From NCBI RefSeq assembly GCF_003286125.1, contig NZ_QMED01000002.1, forward strand, positions 212,634 through 276,633: a DNA stretch of 64,000 nt, written 5' to 3'. This stretch comes from Algibacillus agarilyticus (lineage in GTDB: Bacteria > Pseudomonadota > Gammaproteobacteria > Enterobacterales > Alteromonadaceae). The number at the start of each line of letters is the position of its first letter. Positions within the stretch are counted from its first letter, which is position 1. The notes under the pieces were generated by a model. That model saw only the letters and a program-made list of their open reading frames with translations. It ran no database searches and had not been told where the DNA came from. The translations under genes and the position numbers were made by a program. Below are positions 25,744-34,218 of the stretch, in pieces.

Positions 25744-25769
25744 AAAAAACGAGCCGCAGCTCGCTTTTT
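25744..25769. terminator. Bidirectional rho-independent terminator downstream of the giant ATPase gene
   Basis: AAAAAACGAGC-CGCA-GCTCGCTTTTT. Confidence 0.6.
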
Positions 25770-25822: not shown

Positions 25823-28800
25823 TTAATCTTTAGCGCCATTTGTACCTGCCCAAGCTCGACCTAAAGCACGCATGGCCTTGCCAATGTCATTAATCGGATC
25901 AATCAATTGTTGTGATTGGCTTTGTGTTAAGCCTTGCTGAATATCACCTAATGTTTGCGCAACTAAAGTGAGTTGGTTCGCCATTTGTTGGCTCGGATCA
26001 CTCTCGTCACCCATGGCTTGTTTACGCTTGTATTGACTACAAATATGCTGCCAACGTTCGTTTTGCTCTTCGTTTAATGCACCGCGTAATTGCGCCAATT
26101 TAAGCAAGTTTTCTTCTGCACCAGAGGTTAAGGTTTGCGCTTCACCAACATAATGATCACCGATTAACCGCATGAGCTCGGCTTTATCCATAACCGATGA
26201 TACTTTTTCGGCCATTTTATTCATGTTGCGGTACGAGCCTTGTAATTTAAAAGGTGGCTCGGTGCGATAATCTTCCGCGGTGGCAGCTGAAGCAATGTAT
26301 TGCAGATTCACTTTTAAGATCACTTTTTGGATCTCAAATAAATGCTGCAACACTTGTATTATTTCGTTACGTTCGGCTGCGCTGTAGTCATACGAAAAAT
26401 CAGTGCTAGCCACTTCGCCGCCGTTGGCAAGCTCAACAAAACGATATAAATCTTGCATATCACGTAAAGCTAACGGGGCAAGAACAGGGTTCGACGTTAA
26501 ACTGTTTTCGATATAGCTTAATGCAAATTGCTCTTCTTTACCGCCTAATACGTCACCTAAATTATAAATATCGGCACGGTTAGCCAACATATCCGGCACT
26601 TTAAACACATCGCCCGATTCGGTATAAGGGTTACCCGACATCACCACGCAAAACTTTTTACCGCGCATGTCATAGGTTTTCGTTTTGCCTTGCCATACAC
26701 CTTCTATTCGACGCGTGCCATCACACAAGGCGATAAATTTTTGTAAAAACTCCGGATGCGTATGCTGTATATCATCTAAATACAACATCACATTACTACC
26801 CATTTCAAAACCTAAATTGATTTTTTCAAGTTCTTGCTGCGCGGTTGCATTGGGTGCTTGCTGCGGATCAAGCGATGTAACGTCGTGACCTAAAGACGGG
26901 CAGTTTATTTTCATAAACACTAAGCCGAGTCGATTAGCCACGTATTCCATTAAGGTGGTTTTACCGTAACCTGGGGGTGAGATTAATAACAATAACCCCA
27001 TTAAGTCGGTACGTTTATCATCACCTACTGTGCCCATTTGCTTAGCTAAATTGTCACCAATAATTTGTAAATAAACCTCGTTTATTAATCGGTTACGAAC
27101 AAATGAACTGAGCGGATTCGCTTTAAATGATTCAAGTTGTAGCTGACTACGGTAATCGTGCATTAATTGATTACGCAAAGCATGGTAGCGTTTAAACGCC
27201 GGCACACTGGTGTTATTAAATGTTGCGAGGCGCGTGTTAAATTCGTCCAGCGACAGCGCTAACGAGCCTTCTTTAATGCGTGAATGGTCGCTCAGTAAAC
27301 CGCTAATTTGCGTATCTAACTGCACCGTTGCCACACTGCGCGGTAAATCTTCACATAACAATAAGGTGGCCGCTTCGGTAATGTAATGACTAGCTTGCTG
27401 GTAAATCGTATTGTCTTCGTGTGTTTGCTTAAGTTTAAACTCAATAAAGGCGTCTAACCATGATGTGCATAAACCCCACTGTTCAGCTAAGCCTAATAGT
27501 GTTTGACCGGGTTGATAATGCGCTGTATCACTTAAGTGGGTAAAACGTGCGATCGCATCTTTGTAATCATTAAGATGACCAATGCTGTCTAAATAATCGA
27601 GTAAATCTTGTGCCAATTGCTGGGCTAATTGGCTATTAACAAATTGTAACTCGGGTGCTGCTAGCACCAAACTTAAATAATCTGCCGCGTTGGCGATTAA
27701 ATTCGAATTAAAAGGTAAATCAGCATCCGTTACAAACTGTTGTAACGCTTGTGTTAATTCGGCCAGTAACTCGGTAAAACCTTTTCGGCTATTCAGTGCG
27801 CTCGCTAATAAATGCGCACTGCGGGCATGACGTTGCCACAAGGCTATTTTTTGCTTAGCAAGTGGTGAGTTTTGCCAAAACAAACTGGCTATTGAACGAG
27901 CAGCCGCAGAATAACGTAACAAACCGGCTTGCTGATGAATAGGCAGCAAGGCTTGCAAAATTAAACTTGCGTCTACATCGTGAATACCTTTTTCGTATCC
28001 TTCTTGATAACGCGGTGTCATGTATTTGCGAATAGCGGTTAATAAATAATCAGGTGTTTCAATGCTTTCGTATAACGCGGTTAAACTTAAACCTTCGGTT
28101 TGGTTTTCAGCATGTTGTAATACGCTATAGGCTAAATATTCACTTCTGGCGACTGCGCTATTTTCAGAGACTAAATTTTGCTGCCAATAAGGCGATAAGG
28201 TCGACAGCTCTTCATGCTCTATTCTTTCAAAGTAATCGGTTCCGGTAAGGTGTTTATACATGCCATCGTCGCGTGGCAATAGCGTTAAATCTAACCCTTG
28301 AGTGTTAACACTAAATTTGTGTTTACCCAATTTGATAATGGCACCGCCATCTTCAAAAATATCTTGTTTGTCACGCAAACTACGAATAGCTTGTTCTTTA
28401 GCAGCCTTTAACTGAGCATCAATATCATCTGCTTTTATAGGATCTGCTAAGTCTCGTAATTGCTGCGCTAAATCAGCTAATTTAAGCACCATCGCATCGG
28501 AGGCAAAATAAGTATTGAGTTGGTCAACATCGCTAAAGCTGGTTGCCCGACGTTCAACGCCAGAAATAATTCGCGCGGCGGCACTGGCTAAATTTTGCGC
28601 TCGACGTTGTTGCTCTTCAACTAAGCTTTGCTTACGGTTTTCGAATGCATCTTGTAACTCTTCGCGCTTGGCTAAAATATCCGATAAAAATTCGTCATAT
28701 TCACTGAATTTAGATTCAAGCTCTTCAAGTTGAATTAATAATCGAGATAGCTGTTCATCCGCTTTTTCAGGAGAATCGGCAATCGCTAACGCACTGGTAA

Positions 28801-30904
28801 TGCTTTGCGAGAATAATCTAAACTGTGCAGCAAACTCAGCGACCGCTTCGCCTGAACCAAGCGATTTTTGTTTTTGTCGGCCTTGGGCTTTTACTTGATT
28901 AAGCTTGGCGTATATTTCAGATATATCATCTAATAATTGAGTACGTACGGTCGCATCTTCAACTTTTAGACCATTAAGCACTTCTGTTAATAAATCAAGG
29001 CCGATTGATAGGCTGTCTAATTCTTCATTGAGCGGTGTTAATTCAACAACTAATTCAACGTCATCAATTTGTTGTTTTAACGTGTTTATTTGCTCATGGT
29101 AAGGCGATAACGCGGTATCACTCGCTAAAAAAGTCACCGTTGCTTGGCTAACTTGCTCAAAGGTTTCGGCGGCTTCTTCATCTAATTCTGTTAAACGCGC
29201 TAAATCAATGTAACGTTGCGCTTTTAAACTAATTAAATGACCACGCTGCTTGCGTAAACGACCCAAGCAATCAACAAATTCACGAGGTAACTGCCAATCA
29301 GGTATGCGCACCGACTGCATTATTTTTTTCTGGTCGGCTTCGGCTTCGGCTAACACTTTTTCAGCTTGGTGACGAATTTGCTCAACTTTAATAAATTCAT
29401 CAATCACTAAATCCGCATTGCTGCTGATCATTTTGACCGTTTCGCCAATAGCTGCAACATCACCCTCTGCTAACCAATAAAACGCATCAAAGAGTGTTTT
29501 GCTTTGGCTAATCAAATCTTCGTATAAATTACGACTTGGCTTAGGGTCAAAAATCATGCGATATAAACTGTTAAGTTCAGAGATGCCACGCACTAATTCT
29601 CGGTTACCAATACGACTGTAAAAGGTATCTTGTGTGGGTTGCTTAGCTGAAAACTCTTGACTGAAATAAGGCGTTTGCCACACCTGCATCGGATGCACGC
29701 GAGTCGGCTCTTCTTCGGCACTAAAAACCAGTGCCTGACCATCTTCATATAAACAATAGCCGTGGCCGTAAATCGGATTTTGTAAACCTTTGCGAATGAG
29801 GTTATACGAGAATAAACCAACAAGCCCTTCTTCGGGCTCATAAAAAACAAACAGAACATCTTCACCATTAGGTGAACGAATCGCACGTTTAAAAACTAAA
29901 CCTTCAATTTGATCGGGAAACGATTTGGTTTCGCCATTTTGCAAATAGTAACCGCCAGGAAAAATAATACCGTGGTCTTCGGGTAATGAAATGCACGCTG
30001 AGCCAATTGCATCAATGCGATCAACTTGGTTATTGCGGGTATTAAATACAAAATACCGATGCTGTTTTTCACGGTATGGCTGTATTTTAAGTAAAACAAG
30101 GCTGCCGACTTCAGCAAATTGAATATCGGCATCGGCTAAGCTTTGATTTTTATCATCGACGGGTTCGCTATAAATCCCCTCGCCTTCTTGGGTATTATTT
30201 TCAACCTTAATGGTTAAATCACCATTAATGGTTTCGACAAAGACTTTATCGAGCACGCTAACATGCGGATACTGACCCGAAACATGATCTTCGCGCGATA
30301 CACTTTGCCATTCAAAATCGTGGGTATTGGCTTTTTTTAAAATGCGTTCGCCACGATTGTCGATATACGTTGCGCTACCATCTTTATTGATTTGCCATTG
30401 AAAAACACGGGTATCAGTAATTTGGCGACCAATTTGAAAAATAGCAAACAGGCGTTCATTTTGAACCTGCAGTTGGATCAGTTTTGAATTTTTGTAATAT
30501 ACATAAAGCTCATTAAAATCTTTTTTAAAGACGGGGTCATCTAAAAAAGTCCCCGCTTGCGCGACTTCGGTTATTTCAAAACTCGAATTGTCATTCGATA
30601 AGGTATATAAACTGAATACATCACTGACTTGAGTTTCTTTTTTTAAGCCAATAAATACGTTGTAACCAAAGAGTAAAACATCGCCAACGCGGACGATATC
30701 GCGCGCAACACAGTTGTTTTCAGTGCGAGCACGCACGCGGCTCACAACTTCAAGCGGCGCTTGGCCAAATTCATCAATTCGAGCTTGGTTAAGCGCTTCA
30801 ACTTGTTGTTTTAATTGAGTGGCTTGTTCATTTAAGCGTGCGCATATTACTTCGTATGCACCGCCTTGTGTTACAGCATTATCAAGCGAGTCGTGTTCCG
30901 ACAT
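25823..30904 (-). CDS. Giant (1693 aa) protein: N-terminal globular region, central coiled coil, C-terminal MoxR/AAA_5-type AAA+ ATPase domain; last gene of the NfeD-flotillin operon
   Basis: P-loop LLISPPGYGKTTL, Walker B VMLYLDDIQH, sensor-1-like VVMSGNPYTES; heptad-rich segments at about aa 600-850; single uninterrupted ORF. Confidence 0.8.
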   Translation of the reverse strand: MSEHDSLDNAVTQGGAYEVICARLNEQATQLKQQVEALNQARIDEFGQAPLEVVSRVRARTENNCVARDIVRVGDVLLFGYNVFIGLKKETQVSDVFSLYTLSNDNSSFEITEVAQAGTFLDDPVFKKDFNELYVYYKNSKLIQLQVQNERLFAIFQIGRQITDTRVFQWQINKDGSATYIDNRGERILKKANTHDFEWQSVSREDHVSGQYPHVSVLDKVFVETINGDLTIKVENNTQEGEGIYSEPVDDKNQSLADADIQFAEVGSLVLLKIQPYREKQHRYFVFNTRNNQVDRIDAIGSACISLPEDHGIIFPGGYYLQNGETKSFPDQIEGLVFKRAIRSPNGEDVLFVFYEPEEGLVGLFSYNLIRKGLQNPIYGHGYCLYEDGQALVFSAEEEPTRVHPMQVWQTPYFSQEFSAKQPTQDTFYSRIGNRELVRGISELNSLYRMIFDPKPSRNLYEDLISQSKTLFDAFYWLAEGDVAAIGETVKMISSNADLVIDEFIKVEQIRHQAEKVLAEAEADQKKIMQSVRIPDWQLPREFVDCLGRLRKQRGHLISLKAQRYIDLARLTELDEEAAETFEQVSQATVTFLASDTALSPYHEQINTLKQQIDDVELVVELTPLNEELDSLSIGLDLLTEVLNGLKVEDATVRTQLLDDISEIYAKLNQVKAQGRQKQKSLGSGEAVAEFAAQFRLFSQSITSALAIADSPEKADEQLSRLLIQLEELESKFSEYDEFLSDILAKREELQDAFENRKQSLVEEQQRRAQNLASAAARIISGVERRATSFSDVDQLNTYFASDAMVLKLADLAQQLRDLADPIKADDIDAQLKAAKEQAIRSLRDKQDIFEDGGAIIKLGKHKFSVNTQGLDLTLLPRDDGMYKHLTGTDYFERIEHEELSTLSPYWQQNLVSENSAVARSEYLAYSVLQHAENQTEGLSLTALYESIETPDYLLTAIRKYMTPRYQEGYEKGIHDVDASLILQALLPIHQQAGLLRYSAAARSIASLFWQNSPLAKQKIALWQRHARSAHLLASALNSRKGFTELLAELTQALQQFVTDADLPFNSNLIANAADYLSLVLAAPELQFVNSQLAQQLAQDLLDYLDSIGHLNDYKDAIARFTHLSDTAHYQPGQTLLGLAEQWGLCTSWLDAFIEFKLKQTHEDNTIYQQASHYITEAATLLLCEDLPRSVATVQLDTQISGLLSDHSRIKEGSLALSLDEFNTRLATFNNTSVPAFKRYHALRNQLMHDYRSQLQLESFKANPLSSFVRNRLINEVYLQIIGDNLAKQMGTVGDDKRTDLMGLLLLISPPGYGKTTLMEYVANRLGLVFMKINCPSLGHDVTSLDPQQAPNATAQQELEKINLGFEMGSNVMLYLDDIQHTHPEFLQKFIALCDGTRRIEGVWQGKTKTYDMRGKKFCVVMSGNPYTESGDVFKVPDMLANRADIYNLGDVLGGKEEQFALSYIENSLTSNPVLAPLALRDMQDLYRFVELANGGEVASTDFSYDYSAAERNEIIQVLQHLFEIQKVILKVNLQYIASAATAEDYRTEPPFKLQGSYRNMNKMAEKVSSVMDKAELMRLIGDHYVGEAQTLTSGAEENLLKLAQLRGALNEEQNERWQHICSQYKRKQAMGDESDPSQQMANQLTLVAQTLGDIQQGLTQSQSQQLIDPINDIGKAMRALGRAWAGTNGAKD

Positions 30905-30998
30905 GGTTTTATTATACTCCCTGGCGAAGATATGGCAGGTAAACAGCAGGTATACGCTTTAAGTGGGCATACCTGTGTTTAATTGAAAGAGACCGGTG

Positions 30999-33002
30999 TT
31001 ACTTTTTACCACCTAGTGCAGAGCTAATCATGTTCATTAATTCTGGATTGCTATCGGCATTTTTAAGTAACTTACCAACTAAGGCCGTTGTCGCGACATC
31101 TTTAATTTCACCGGTTGCACCGCCAAAGCCGGCGACCAACTCTTTTGCATCTTCAACAAAGCTAGCATCACCATTTAAATGGTCTTTAAAGGCGGTACTT
31201 AAAGTGTTACTTTTTTCGATCGCACCATCAATTGATTTACCCACCGCAAGCGATTTAACAAAGCTATCAAAGTAAGCCGTATCACCACCCACAATATCAA
31301 TTTTAGCTTGCTTAAGTGCTTCGGCTAATACAACAGCTTGCTCTTTCGCAATATTTACATTGGCATCAATATTGTGCAATATTTGCTCATGTTGTTTTTC
31401 AAGCTGCATACGGAACTCTTCATGTGCGCGTTGCTGTTCAGACATGGTCTCCATGGCCGCAAATTTCTTAGTCATTCCTTCTGCTTCTGCGGCTGCTTTT
31501 TCAGCTAGCACTTTAGCATCGGCTAAACCGGTTTTTTCTATTGCGTCAGCTTTAGCTTCGGTTACACGCACTTCCGCCATGCCTTCTTGCTCATAAGCAA
31601 TCGCTTTCGCTTCCATGACTTTAGCTTCGGCTAAGCCGGTTGCTGCCGCTAACGCTTCTGTACCTTCAGCTTCGCGTTTTTGCGATAATGCATTTTTCTC
31701 AGCGACTTCTAAGTCTGCTTGCGCAATTAAGGTTTTTTCTTTCGCTAAGTATTCGGCTGATTTCTCTGCGGCTTCTGCGGCTTTAATATCGCGCACTAAT
31801 GCTTGCTCTGCATCGGCTTCGGCATTAATAATAAGTGATTTTTTCTCGCGTTCAGCTTCAGAAACCAAACGAAGTTCTTTTATTTCTTCTTCGCGTTGTG
31901 CAACCGTTTTATCAACTTCAACTCGGCTACGAATAACTTCCGCTATTTCTCGCTTTTCATGTTCAACGAGTTTTTCGTTAGCAATCGTTTGTAACGCAAT
32001 TTCTTTTTCACGTTCAATACGCTCAAGATCACGCGCTTTAATAACACGCTCTTCTTCAATCGCCACCGCACGTTGTTTGTTGTTTTCCGCAACTTCAACT
32101 TCACGTTGTTTATTTTGCTCTTGTACTTCGGCTTCTTGCTCAGTTTGAATACGCGCTTGTTCTGATTTTAAATGCTCTTCGTGTTTAACCCGTTCTGTTT
32201 CAGCGGTTTCGCGAGCAATAACGGTTTCGATTTCGCGCTTTTGCTTTGCTTCAGCATCGGCCTGTTGGCGTTCTAGCTCAAGCATGGCTTCGCGTGTTTC
32301 AACATCTTTACGCTTGATTTTCATTTCTTCATCACGTTGAAAAACATTGGTTTGAATGTTTTGCTCAGCGGTTAATTCAGTAATTTTACGAATACCTTGT
32401 GAATCAAGAATATTATTAGGGTCAAGCTTATTAAGTGGGGTTTGCTCAAGGTAATCGATGGCAACATCTTCAAGCACATAACCATTTAAATCGGTACCAA
32501 TGTTATCAATGATCATATCGCGAAAATTATCGCGCTTGGCATAGAGTTCAACAAACTCTAACGATTTACCCACGGTTTTAAGGGCTTCCGAGAATTTTGC
32601 ACTAAATAGCTCTTCTAACGTCGCAATATTTGAAGCGCGCTCACAACCAATGGCTTGTGCTACTTTTAATACGTCATCACGGTTTTTATTTACGCGAACA
32701 AAAAAGCCCACTTTTATATCGGCTCTAATATTATCTCGACATATCAAACCATCAGAGCCATTACGATCAACTTCTATTGTTTTGAGCGAGATATCCATAA
32801 TCTCCATTTTATGGAATACAGGCACAACAACTGAGCCAGTAAACGTAACATTAGGTTCAGCGCGCATGGTGTTCACAATCATCGCTTTACCTTGTTCAAC
32901 CTTGCGGTATAAGCTCGCTAAAAAAAATAAAATAGCTAACGCAAAAACAGCAATACCAACACCTATGCCTAACCAGACTTCCCACGTAAAACTTAATTCC
33001 AT
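30999..33002 (-). CDS. yqiK: Flotillin-family SPFH protein (YqiK-like, long form)
   Basis: TM helix then an SPFH domain and a very long Ala/Glu/Lys-rich coiled coil; start set at the Met (MELSFT), which is preceded by GGGAG and overlaps the upstream stop (TAATGG). Confidence 0.85.
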   Translation of the reverse strand: MELSFTWEVWLGIGVGIAVFALAILFFLASLYRKVEQGKAMIVNTMRAEPNVTFTGSVVVPVFHKMEIMDISLKTIEVDRNGSDGLICRDNIRADIKVGFFVRVNKNRDDVLKVAQAIGCERASNIATLEELFSAKFSEALKTVGKSLEFVELYAKRDNFRDMIIDNIGTDLNGYVLEDVAIDYLEQTPLNKLDPNNILDSQGIRKITELTAEQNIQTNVFQRDEEMKIKRKDVETREAMLELERQQADAEAKQKREIETVIARETAETERVKHEEHLKSEQARIQTEQEAEVQEQNKQREVEVAENNKQRAVAIEEERVIKARDLERIEREKEIALQTIANEKLVEHEKREIAEVIRSRVEVDKTVAQREEEIKELRLVSEAEREKKSLIINAEADAEQALVRDIKAAEAAEKSAEYLAKEKTLIAQADLEVAEKNALSQKREAEGTEALAAATGLAEAKVMEAKAIAYEQEGMAEVRVTEAKADAIEKTGLADAKVLAEKAAAEAEGMTKKFAAMETMSEQQRAHEEFRMQLEKQHEQILHNIDANVNIAKEQAVVLAEALKQAKIDIVGGDTAYFDSFVKSLAVGKSIDGAIEKSNTLSTAFKDHLNGDASFVEDAKELVAGFGGATGEIKDVATTALVGKLLKNADSNPELMNMISSALGGKK

Positions 33003-33013
33003 TTCTGCTCCCA

Positions 33014-33655
33014 TTAATTTTGATTTAATAATTCGTATTCGGTGACCACCCAAAAGTGATCGTTATTTTTGTCGTAACTAATTAAGGCAATGCGATCGCC
33101 TTTGCTTATGTTATTAGGTTCATCAGCTCTTACACTGAGCACCATACTGCCGTCATCTAAAACAGCCTGACCAAATTTGTTAGTCACTTTAGTCGTGGTA
33201 ACCACGCAAATTTGCCCCGTAATATCTGATTTTGACACTGCTTCGTGTGTATAAAAAAAACGTCTTAATGGCTTTATGCTAATAGCCGTAAGCGGGATCG
33301 CAACAACAACCGCAAATAGCGCAATTAAGCTGCCGAGTACAGCCGAAGTAATCAGCTCATCAGCCAATGGCATCATAAACTTACGTGCCACGTAACTTAA
33401 CCCAAGGCCATAAGCATCTAAAAAGGTCAGCACAACCATTAATGGCGCACCGTCTAGGCCGAGTTTTTGTAACCAAGAGGTTTCGGTTTGATTGTCGTTT
33501 TCTATTTCAGGTTCAATGTCGGCAATTTCAATATCGACAAAACCAAGCAGGGCAACCAGCCAAAAAAAGAAGATAACAACAAGTGGGAGAGAAAAGATAA
33601 TGTTAGGGAAACTAAAAACTTCTGTTAAAAATAAATCCATTTTAATAAACCACAT
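33014..33655 (-). CDS. yqiJ: NfeD-like/YqiJ-family membrane protein (OB-fold C-terminus)
   Basis: Multi-TM N-half and a soluble C-terminal beta-rich domain, as in NfeD/YqiJ proteins encoded upstream of flotillins; the ORF track start is a TTG and the first ATG is used here. Confidence 0.65.
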   Translation of the reverse strand: MWFIKMDLFLTEVFSFPNIIFSLPLVVIFFFWLVALLGFVDIEIADIEPEIENDNQTETSWLQKLGLDGAPLMVVLTFLDAYGLGLSYVARKFMMPLADELITSAVLGSLIALFAVVVAIPLTAISIKPLRRFFYTHEAVSKSDITGQICVVTTTKVTNKFGQAVLDDGSMVLSVRADEPNNISKGDRIALISYDKNNDHFWVVTEYELLNQN

Positions 33656-33825
33656 ACTACATCCGATTAACGCCAATGTAGCTTATTTTTATCGCGCTGT
33701 TAACTAGAATATGACATCAATTGTATGAAATTAAGTTTTTGCCATCTTTTGGTATATTAATTAAATCGTTTGCCAGTCATAATAAAATATACATGATTGA
33801 AATTAGTTAATTAAATGGAATTTAC

Positions 33826-34218
33826 ATGAGCGAAGCACACACAATAGGATTAGGAACAATAAAAGCAATACGCCACGATATTGCCGAAGTTATCTGTCAT
33901 GAAGGCATTGAAATTACATTAGAGATGGTTGCTGAATACCACCAGTTTTTAGCGGATCATTTTGCCTCGCCTTGTTCTGTATTAGTTAATAAAATAAATG
34001 CCTATACTTACACTTTTGAAGCTCAGCTCGAAATAGGCACGGCAGCGCATATTAATTCACTCGCATTTGTTACCTACAACCGAGTCGCTGAAATTGCCGT
34101 ACAAACCTTATCGGCTTATCCGCGTAAAAAAAATTGGCAAGATAATTTTTTTAATGACAAAGAAGACGCGATACAATGGCTTATAGCTCAGCAAGAAAAT
34201 GTGAACACTAAAAAATAA
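33826..34218 (+). CDS. Hypothetical protein (130 aa)
   Basis: Clean ORF with a plausible start; no recognised motif. Confidence 0.4.
   Translation: MSEAHTIGLGTIKAIRHDIAEVICHEGIEITLEMVAEYHQFLADHFASPCSVLVNKINAYTYTFEAQLEIGTAAHINSLAFVTYNRVAEIAVQTLSAYPRKKNWQDNFFNDKEDAIQWLIAQQENVNTKK

Follow-up and report, generated by a model that had tools for sequence, protein, structure and literature searches.

What does a very large ATPase do when its gene lies directly behind the genes for a flotillin and its small membrane partner? The question is raised by a stretch of 64,000 nt from the Algibacillus agarilyticus genome (contig NZ_QMED01000002.1, positions 212,634 to 276,633 of the forward strand, hereafter "the window"), in which three consecutive minus-strand genes encode a YqiJ-like protein, a flotillin, and a giant soluble ATPase of 1693 aa. 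An original prediction, made without database searches, had treated the three genes as a tightly linked operon and as a candidate for an undescribed system. We propose that the locus is an abbreviated form of a widespread module for envelope stress and membrane maintenance that remodels flotillin/PspA assemblies at the expense of ATP, and we assign this reading a probability of roughly 0.55. The identity and the context of the module are near-certain, while the remodelling mechanism, taken alone, is tentative.

Conserved linkage of the three genes

For comparison, we collected 80 loci from species-representative genomes and, in addition, plasmid records. The 80 loci stem from Gamma-, Beta-, and Zetaproteobacteria, Myxococcota, Actinomycetota, Acidobacteriota, and one metagenome-assembled genome of the Clostridia; the plasmid records add Deinococcota and Bacteroidota, so that six or more phyla are represented. 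All 81 related loci with upstream DNA (plasmids included) have a flotillin gene of the same subfamily upstream of the giant gene and on the same strand, and in 76 of them a YqiJ-like gene is also found upstream of the flotillin gene. The triad is an obligate co-oriented unit across phyla. The original prediction had asked whether the large gene always follows the flotillin gene, and had named a lack of conserved linkage as a reason to give it up; the linkage turned out to be conserved in 81 of 81 loci, and the tight array of three minus-strand genes, which agrees with the ORF (open reading frame) listing, corresponds to a conserved module in the relatives. The length of the gap between the flotillin gene and the giant gene is not conserved: values mostly range from −4 (an overlap) to 218 bp, 12 loci have 313–945 bp, and three have 2–6.4 kb.

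The same arrangement was obtained from annotation and from the reverse direction. Four annotated plasmid records (Pseudomonas pQBR103, Deinococcus, Streptomyces, and Hymenobacter) list a small protein, an SPFH/flotillin protein, and a "DNA repair ATPase", and in two of the four PspA is encoded directly upstream. A reverse start from the Azoarcus flotillin (P0234), with independent gene calls, yielded the order DUF2170, PspA, a 109-aa protein, YqiJ-like protein, flotillin, giant protein.

The recurrent partners of the triad are membrane- or stress-related proteins. DUF2170 (YjfI, CesT/Tir-like) and PspA/IM30 are encoded upstream in 31 of the 73 evaluable loci (~40%). Downstream, genes for a PLD-like HKD protein and for TelA are each present in 12 of 76 loci, and a rhomboid gene in 8 of 76. 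The TelA and rhomboid associations widen the membrane-stress context beyond PspA and PLD.

Several further features of the related loci were observed. The TelA (toxic anion resistance) genes lie right after the giant gene, sometimes as a tandem pair, for example in Xanthomonadales/Lysobacterales (L067:15038-16183, L029:14274-15038). Seven loci contain an ORF of 79 aa, mostly between the flotillin and the giant genes (L012:8613-8852), whose product weakly resembles TerB/EF-hand proteins (PF05099, E 5.8e-5), and an ORF of 109–111 aa without a Pfam match is found between the PspA and YqiJ-like genes in about 12 loci (L086:7947-8276). Neither of these two small ORFs is mentioned in the available portion of the description by Ravi et al. 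(2024). On pQBR103 (L001, NC_009444.1, 85.4–101.5 kb) the triad is located directly downstream of a complete yjf-like block, consisting of PspA, rhomboid, DUF2491, DUF350, DUF1190, and a glutathionylspermidine-synthase-like gene; this array thus combines two of the operon classes that Ravi et al. describe around PspA.

The giant protein belongs to the DUF3686 family

The giant protein had been regarded as not assignable to any family. It is instead a full-length member of an NCBI-named family, with a 100% match to the A. agarilyticus "DNA repair ATPase". The match to PF12458 (DUF3686) has 661.3 bits (cut-off 25, E 7.6e-199) and spans residues 31–476, i.e. profile positions 2–448 of 448, and PF25472 (DUF7902) follows with 97.7 bits (E 1.4e-28). 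Towards the C-terminus, the protein is above threshold for PF00004 (AAA, 30.2 bits) as well as for PF07728 (AAA_5, 28 bits, residues 1305–1428). This colinear order of DUF3686, DUF7902, and a C-terminal AAA domain, in a protein of 1600 to 1800 aa, is the full-length architecture expected of a family member. More than 6500 close matches were found, and the family comprises 1356 clusters at 50% identity. Its architecture is uniform, alignments over the full length reach down to 28% identity, and at least 584 species-representative genomes carry a member. No transmembrane (TM) segment was detected in the giant protein by hydropathy, and it is thus regarded as soluble.

About 550 aa at the N-terminus had been described as unrecognisable, and this description was superseded by structure prediction, which yielded a β-propeller. 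The AlphaFold2 (AF2) model of residues 1–560 has a mean pLDDT (predicted local distance difference test score) of 85.7 and a pTM (predicted template modelling score) of 0.78. Residues 52 to 410 hold about 28 β-strands, arranged in roughly seven four-stranded blades, and helices follow at residues 428–559. The leading Foldseek matches in the PDB are mostly β-propeller-containing proteins (E 2e-6 to 1e-4, ~10% identity), including the WD40 propellers of DCAF1 and LRRK2, sialidase/pseudaminidase, prolyl oligopeptidase, and Cdh1. Because propellers dominate these matches at only ~10% identity, the modelled region is best described as a generic propeller of about seven blades without a specific relative. 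Searches of PDB sequences with phmmer, using the full giant protein and the flotillin as queries, gave P-loop noise or nothing.

In the middle region, DUF7902 was the only domain recognised by Pfam. Two conserved islands are present there, GG..I.LG.H.F.VN (residues ~855–870) and Y.EGY..G.HD.D (residues 967–978). The heptad-rich coiled coil of about 300 aa that had been predicted is only roughly right, as a crude score gives five scattered heptad-like stretches (470–528, 625–660, 713–808, 1027–1063, and 1559–1594).

The AAA+ module

The block of residues 1262–1610 is the most conserved part of the giant protein, with ~90% column identity across four phyla. The invariance of its motifs was judged in 32 homologues sharing 32–64% identity. 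The P-loop PPGYGKTT, the Walker B segment LYLDDIQ, and the GNP motif, all reported in the original prediction, are present and invariant, and the same is true for FKLQGSYRNM at residues 1552–1561. The Walker B motif carries an invariant DD in these diverse homologues and does not conform to the canonical hhhhDE, which suggests slow, switch-like hydrolysis.

The type of AAA+ module is less well defined. The likeness to the MoxR/AAA_5 group (NorQ, CbbQ, RavA, and midasin) consists in the above-threshold AAA_5 match and in the outcome of the structure search, which placed NorQ, CbbQ, and midasin high among its AAA+ matches. The C-terminal AF2 model is weak and its structure matches are marginal (Skd3/ClpB, ClpA, NorQ, CbbQ, midasin, RuvB, and NtrC-type proteins); among the α/β matches there are only AAA+ proteins, and as a whole they lean towards MoxR/Clp-like ATPases. 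The family profile, compared with PDB sequences, matched segregases of the classic clade as well as midasin, with the matches confined to the surroundings of the P-loop. A VWA/MIDAS partner was found neither in the operon proteins, nor in the scanned window neighbours, nor in the recurrent neighbour clusters of the relatives. The block GNPYTExG..F.PDMLANRAD presumably resembles the MoxR sensor-1/"LPEAQLDRF" region. Of the earlier assignment to a MoxR-type AAA+ domain, the AAA+ part therefore stands, while the MoxR type is not established, because the AAA model scores almost equally, a VWA partner is missing, and the Walker B is of the DD type. We treat "MoxR-type" as a lead, not as a finding.

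The YqiJ-like protein and the flotillin

Neither Pfam nor NCBIfam gave a match for the small protein or for the flotillin even at E = 10, so that the small protein had no NfeD or DUF1449 hit and the flotillin did not hit PF01145 directly. Both proteins were therefore identified by comparing them, pairwise and with profiles, to E. coli YqiJ and YqiK. Aligned with YqiJ by hhalign, the small protein scored a probability of 90.5% (E 1.4e-6); the alignment spans 131 columns and takes in the β-rich part at the C-terminus. The flotillin is 30% identical to YqiK over 419 aa (E 9e-40), a range that covers the SPFH region. The identities proposed earlier for the two proteins were thereby corroborated. 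According to hydropathy, the YqiJ-like protein has three hydrophobic segments (residues 14–32, 67–85, and 97–115), the first two of which (TM1 and TM2) are joined by an acidic loop, and ends in a soluble, β-rich domain. The flotillin consists of one N-terminal TM segment (residues 11–29), the SPFH domain, a long E/A-rich coiled coil, and the flotillin C-terminal region. Among its homologues, which bear the names YqiK or flotillin family, a few carry PF01145.

The flotillin is 43–51% identical to the triad flotillins of Pseudomonas, Deinococcus, Streptomyces, and Hymenobacter. As this similarity across phyla exceeds the 30% identity to E. coli YqiK, the triad flotillins probably represent a dedicated subfamily.

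Organization of the locus and expression signals

The ORF listing has the three consecutive minus-strand ORFs at 33014..33676, 30999..33053, and 25823..30904. The features of the locus, with the gene starts discussed below, are compiled in Table 1.

Table 1. Features of the YqiJ-like–flotillin–giant ATPase locus (positions in the window)
Feature	Position	Strand	Evidence or remark
YqiJ/DUF1449-like (NfeD-like) small membrane protein, 208 aa	33014..33640	-	ORF and homologue-aligned start
Flotillin (YqiK-type SPFH protein), 667 aa	30999..33002	-	Alternative start 33014
Giant soluble ATPase, 1693 aa, DUF3686/"DNA repair ATPase" family	25823..30904	-	Pfam
N-terminal long helix, residues 15-46, preceding the propeller	30767..30862	-	AF2, pLDDT 81-93
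β-Propeller, residues ~52-410, core of Pfam DUF3686	29675..30751	-	AF2 and Foldseek
Helical middle region, residues ~428-1260, ~800 aa	27125..29623	-	Pfam, conservation, heptad score; AF2 helices cover 428-559
DUF7902, residues 598-681	28862-29113	-	Pfam
AAA+ module and conserved C-terminal helical domain, residues 1262-1610	26075..27121	-	Pfam, alignment, structure search
Walker A, S1309-PPGYGKT	26957-26980	-	Invariant
Walker B, D1377-D1378-IQH	26762-26776	-	Invariant
Sensor-1, G1424-N-P, and PDMLANR1443AD	26570-26635	-	Invariant
Promoter-like site upstream of the YqiJ-like gene, TTAACA-17-TACATT	33675..33703	-	Consensus match only, weak
Intercistronic hairpin, ~15 bp stem, no U-tract	30940..30981	-	-21.2 kcal/mol, z = -2.09, 4/200 shuffles as good
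Intrinsic terminator closing the operon	25744..25769	-	CGAGC-TGCG-GCTCG + T6, read directly

The most likely start of the YqiJ-like gene is the ATG at 33640 (MDLFL...), because it agrees with the N-termini of 22 homologues and with tblastn alignments. For the flotillin gene, the ATG at 33002 (MELSF...) is the most likely start; it is the start of the deposited A. agarilyticus protein, a 100% match, and GGGAG is present 5 nt upstream. The original prediction had placed the start in a TAATGG overlap of the two genes. That start (33014) is possible, but less likely than the ATG at 33002. Depending on the flotillin start, the junction of the two genes is a 1-nt overlap or an 11-nt gap, so that the genes are translationally coupled with either start.

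The spacer between the flotillin and the giant genes comprises 94 nt (30905–30998), and no terminator-like site was found in it. Co-transcription of the two genes is therefore likely, and the earlier statement that no terminator is encountered before 25744–25769 was borne out; that terminator is bidirectional, with A5 on the opposite flank and the same stem scored on the plus strand. The stem of the spacer hairpin is of the AAACAGCAGGUAUAC/GUAUACCUGCUGUUU type. Just downstream of it lies CTGCCA-16-TATAAT, which matches best among the promoter-like sites of the region and whose −10 element ends 6 nt ahead of the ATG of the giant gene. The hairpin is possibly an mRNA-stability or dosage element, and it could tune the expression ratio of flotillin and ATPase. 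Since the spacer length varies widely among the relatives, the hairpin is probably lineage-specific. Promoter-like sites are rarer in the region than in shuffled sequences, and the site upstream of the YqiJ-like gene thus has to be regarded as a mere consensus match. An Rfam scan of the whole window detected no known RNA.

The neighbours of the operon in the window are housekeeping genes (LysR, FKBP, YCII, and an MFS transporter). The 185 bp upstream of the YqiJ-like gene are shared with a divergent ORF of 130 aa (33826–34218, plus strand). This ORF has a sub-threshold match to DUF7793 (E 7.4e-4, 20 bits versus a cut-off of 26), and a counterpart was not found beside the triad in the other loci. 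The segment 10001–16000 of the window, which is unrelated to the operon, has a G+C content of 0.33–0.37 compared with ~0.40 elsewhere and a sign flip of the AT skew, and may have been acquired horizontally.

Relation to known systems

The view that the system is undescribed was not upheld. Ravi et al. (2024; mSystems 9:e00847-23; bioRxiv 2020) devote one paragraph to a CesT/Tir–PspA dyad with three further genes, the partners including a 3-TM YqiJ/YuaF protein and sometimes a PLD protein, and they distinguish a full form with the dyad from an abbreviated operon that lacks it. The three-gene core of the window, i.e. a giant protein with an N-terminal helix and propeller, a YqiJ-like protein, and a flotillin, fits this operon. 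The full versions with DUF2170 and PspA, sometimes with PLD, were recovered among the relatives, whereas the window holds the three-gene core only, with no PspA, CesT/Tir, or PLD gene within 64 kb. As PspA and DUF2170 are lacking, the locus corresponds to the abbreviated form. Ravi et al. draw the same inference of a membrane-stress context from the flotillin/AAA+ neighbourhood; their account is contextual, without linkage quantification, structure, or experiment. A literature search found no paper naming DUF3686 and none with an experiment on the ATPase, which is not mentioned by Hinderhofer (2009) or in a 2026 paper on P. aeruginosa SPFH proteins; wider searches yielded reviews and Ravi et al. 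(2024) only. The triad has thus already been noted by comparative genomics and is experimentally uncharacterised, as the original prediction had held for the function, and the locus is a further member.

The first two genes have the same order and the same tight coupling as the NfeD-like/flotillin pairs yqiJ–yqiK of E. coli and yuaF–floT of B. subtilis. The identity to E. coli YqiK covers the TM, SPFH, and coiled-coil regions of the flotillin, and YqiJ is alike at the profile level. In E. coli K-12, however, the genes after yqiK are sibD/ibsD and hldE instead of an ATPase gene, and the triad flotillins are longer (~640–720 aa) than YqiK (553 aa) and form a separate subfamily.

Two further comparisons concern the coupling of an AAA+ protein to a membrane-associated polymer. 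HflK/C–FtsH would share with the triad the theme of an SPFH scaffold that is functionally coupled to an AAA+ protein at the inner membrane, a coupling that is a proposal in the case of the triad. FtsH is a membrane-anchored AAA protease of the classic clade and has no fusion-type operon partnership with hflKC, while the giant protein is soluble, lacks a protease domain, is five times the size of an AAA module, and belongs to a different or unsettled clade. The likeness to Vps4/ESCRT-III and to PspF–PspA is an AAA+ protein that is genetically tied to a polymer of the ESCRT-III superfamily, as PspA is encoded upstream of the triad in the fraction of loci given above. Unlike Vps4, the giant protein has no recognised MIT domain and no second region of homology of the classic clade; unlike PspF, it has no helix-turn-helix domain and is not a σ54 activator. 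The obligate partner of the giant ATPase is flotillin, not PspA.

Proposed function and alternatives

We propose the following mechanism for the module. An SPFH scaffold made of the flotillin and the YqiJ-like protein would form at the inner membrane, on its cytoplasmic side. The giant protein would oligomerise via its AAA+ module and reach this scaffold via its propeller and its coiled-coil/helical arms. During membrane damage, the use of ATP would then serve to assemble, remodel, or disassemble polymers of flotillin and/or PspA, analogous, but not homologous, to the action of Vps4 on ESCRT-III or of FtsH inside HflK/C. In the Algibacillus genome, the module might work with a PspA that is encoded elsewhere, or on flotillin alone. 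In B. subtilis, SPFH proteins are reported to recruit PspA (PMC8581546).

Several observations weigh against this proposal. Genes for PspA, DUF2170, PLD, TelA, and rhomboid are absent from the 64-kb window, where PspA and DUF2170 were sought with hidden Markov models built from 35 related loci each; the connection to PspA is therefore indirect here. The last ~60 aa are not conserved in the conservation profile of the triad flotillins, so that there is no obvious universal docking tail. The DD instead of DE in the Walker B motif could mean weak or no hydrolysis. The C-terminal AF2 model has a low confidence (pLDDT 70.2, pTM 0.45) and the AAA+ clade is not settled, and hexamer formation and substrate threading are thus assumptions. 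Lastly, the promoter-like site and the hairpin in the spacer leave room for a partly independent expression of the ATPase.

A first alternative is a role in the extraction and quality control of membrane proteins. Here the flotillin cage would corral damaged proteins, and an AAA+ unfoldase or segregase would pull them out, similar to p97, Msp1, or FtsH, yet without a protease. The established precedent of HflK/C–FtsH for an SPFH protein with an AAA+ partner speaks for this view, as do the rhomboid intramembrane proteases encoded downstream in 8 of 76 loci, and the Walker A region is similar to those of NVL, Rix7, p97/Cdc48, AFG2, and NSF (E 1.5e-6 to 1e-3). That similarity to classic AAA proteins is, however, limited to ~35–67 residues around the P-loop, whereas AAA+ proteins of the Clp, MoxR, NtrC, and midasin types come out ahead in the structure searches, and Pfam shows neither a protease domain nor a recognisable p97-type substrate-binding N-domain. 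We consider this alternative unlikely.

A second alternative is anti-phage defence or abortive infection, in which the flotillin/YqiJ pair would sense the perturbation of the membrane by a phage and the ATPase would activate an effector, e.g. a PLD/HKD protein, or collapse the membrane. The distribution is patchy and includes large plasmids such as pQBR103, genes of the PLD (HKD) family follow the ATPase gene in 12 of 76 loci, TelA and TerB-like proteins are common neighbours, PspA has been linked to phage stress, and a 2024 paper on the conjugation of CBASS CD-NTases refers to PspA at length. However, among the models of PADLOC-DB v2 the sole match was IetA (E 1.1e-3, 16.4 bits), confined to 29 residues of the P-loop, and nothing was found for the other two proteins. 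The core triad is devoid of an effector domain, PLD is present in a minority of loci, and the housekeeping neighbourhood in the window is not a defence island. A tblastn search of 72,556 plasmid records gave 13 matches, and several of these are chromosomes or chromids filed as plasmids; a phage collection was not searched. A defence function therefore appears quite improbable.

The database name, according to which the giant protein would be an SMC-, Rad50-, or RuvB-like DNA-repair ATPase with an incidental flotillin neighbour, agrees with the NCBI and Pfam labels, with P-loop matches to RuvB models (E 3e-3 to 6e-3) and with marginal RuvB structure matches, but it is hardly credible: the RuvB matches are restricted to the P-loop and far below threshold (16–17 bits versus cut-offs of 27 in Pfam and 282–299 in NCBIfam), the Pfam and NCBIfam scans revealed no DNA-binding, nuclease, or ABC/SMC head domain, there is one AAA+ module, at the C-terminus, instead of an ABC head that is split, the gene neighbours encode PspA, TelA, rhomboid, and PLD proteins instead of repair functions, no paper supporting the name was retrieved, and the linkage to a membrane scaffold in 81 of 81 loci across phyla is incompatible with chance.

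Implications

As neither the domains, nor the gene neighbours, nor published work appear to support the name, "DNA repair ATPase" or "ATPase involved in DNA repair" (NCBI, PF12458) is probably a propagated misannotation, and it has spread to thousands of database entries.

The envelope-stress reading of the module concerns the turnover of assemblies of flotillin and of PspA/Vipp1, which are themselves well studied; a 2025 review holds that bacteria lack a Vps4-like regulator of PspA. The giant ATPase is a concrete and genetically tractable candidate for this role. Its candidacy rests on the obligate pairing with flotillin in hundreds of species and on the presence of PspA in ~40% of the evaluable loci. 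By analogy, the giant ATPase might be a bacterial counterpart of Vps4 that is docked on a flotillin cage and drives the assembly and disassembly of flotillin/PspA polymers, a doubtful but specific possibility. If it were true, the triad would constitute a mechanistically new SPFH–AAA+ system of membrane remodelling, independent of the archaeal and eukaryotic ESCRT–Vps4 systems.

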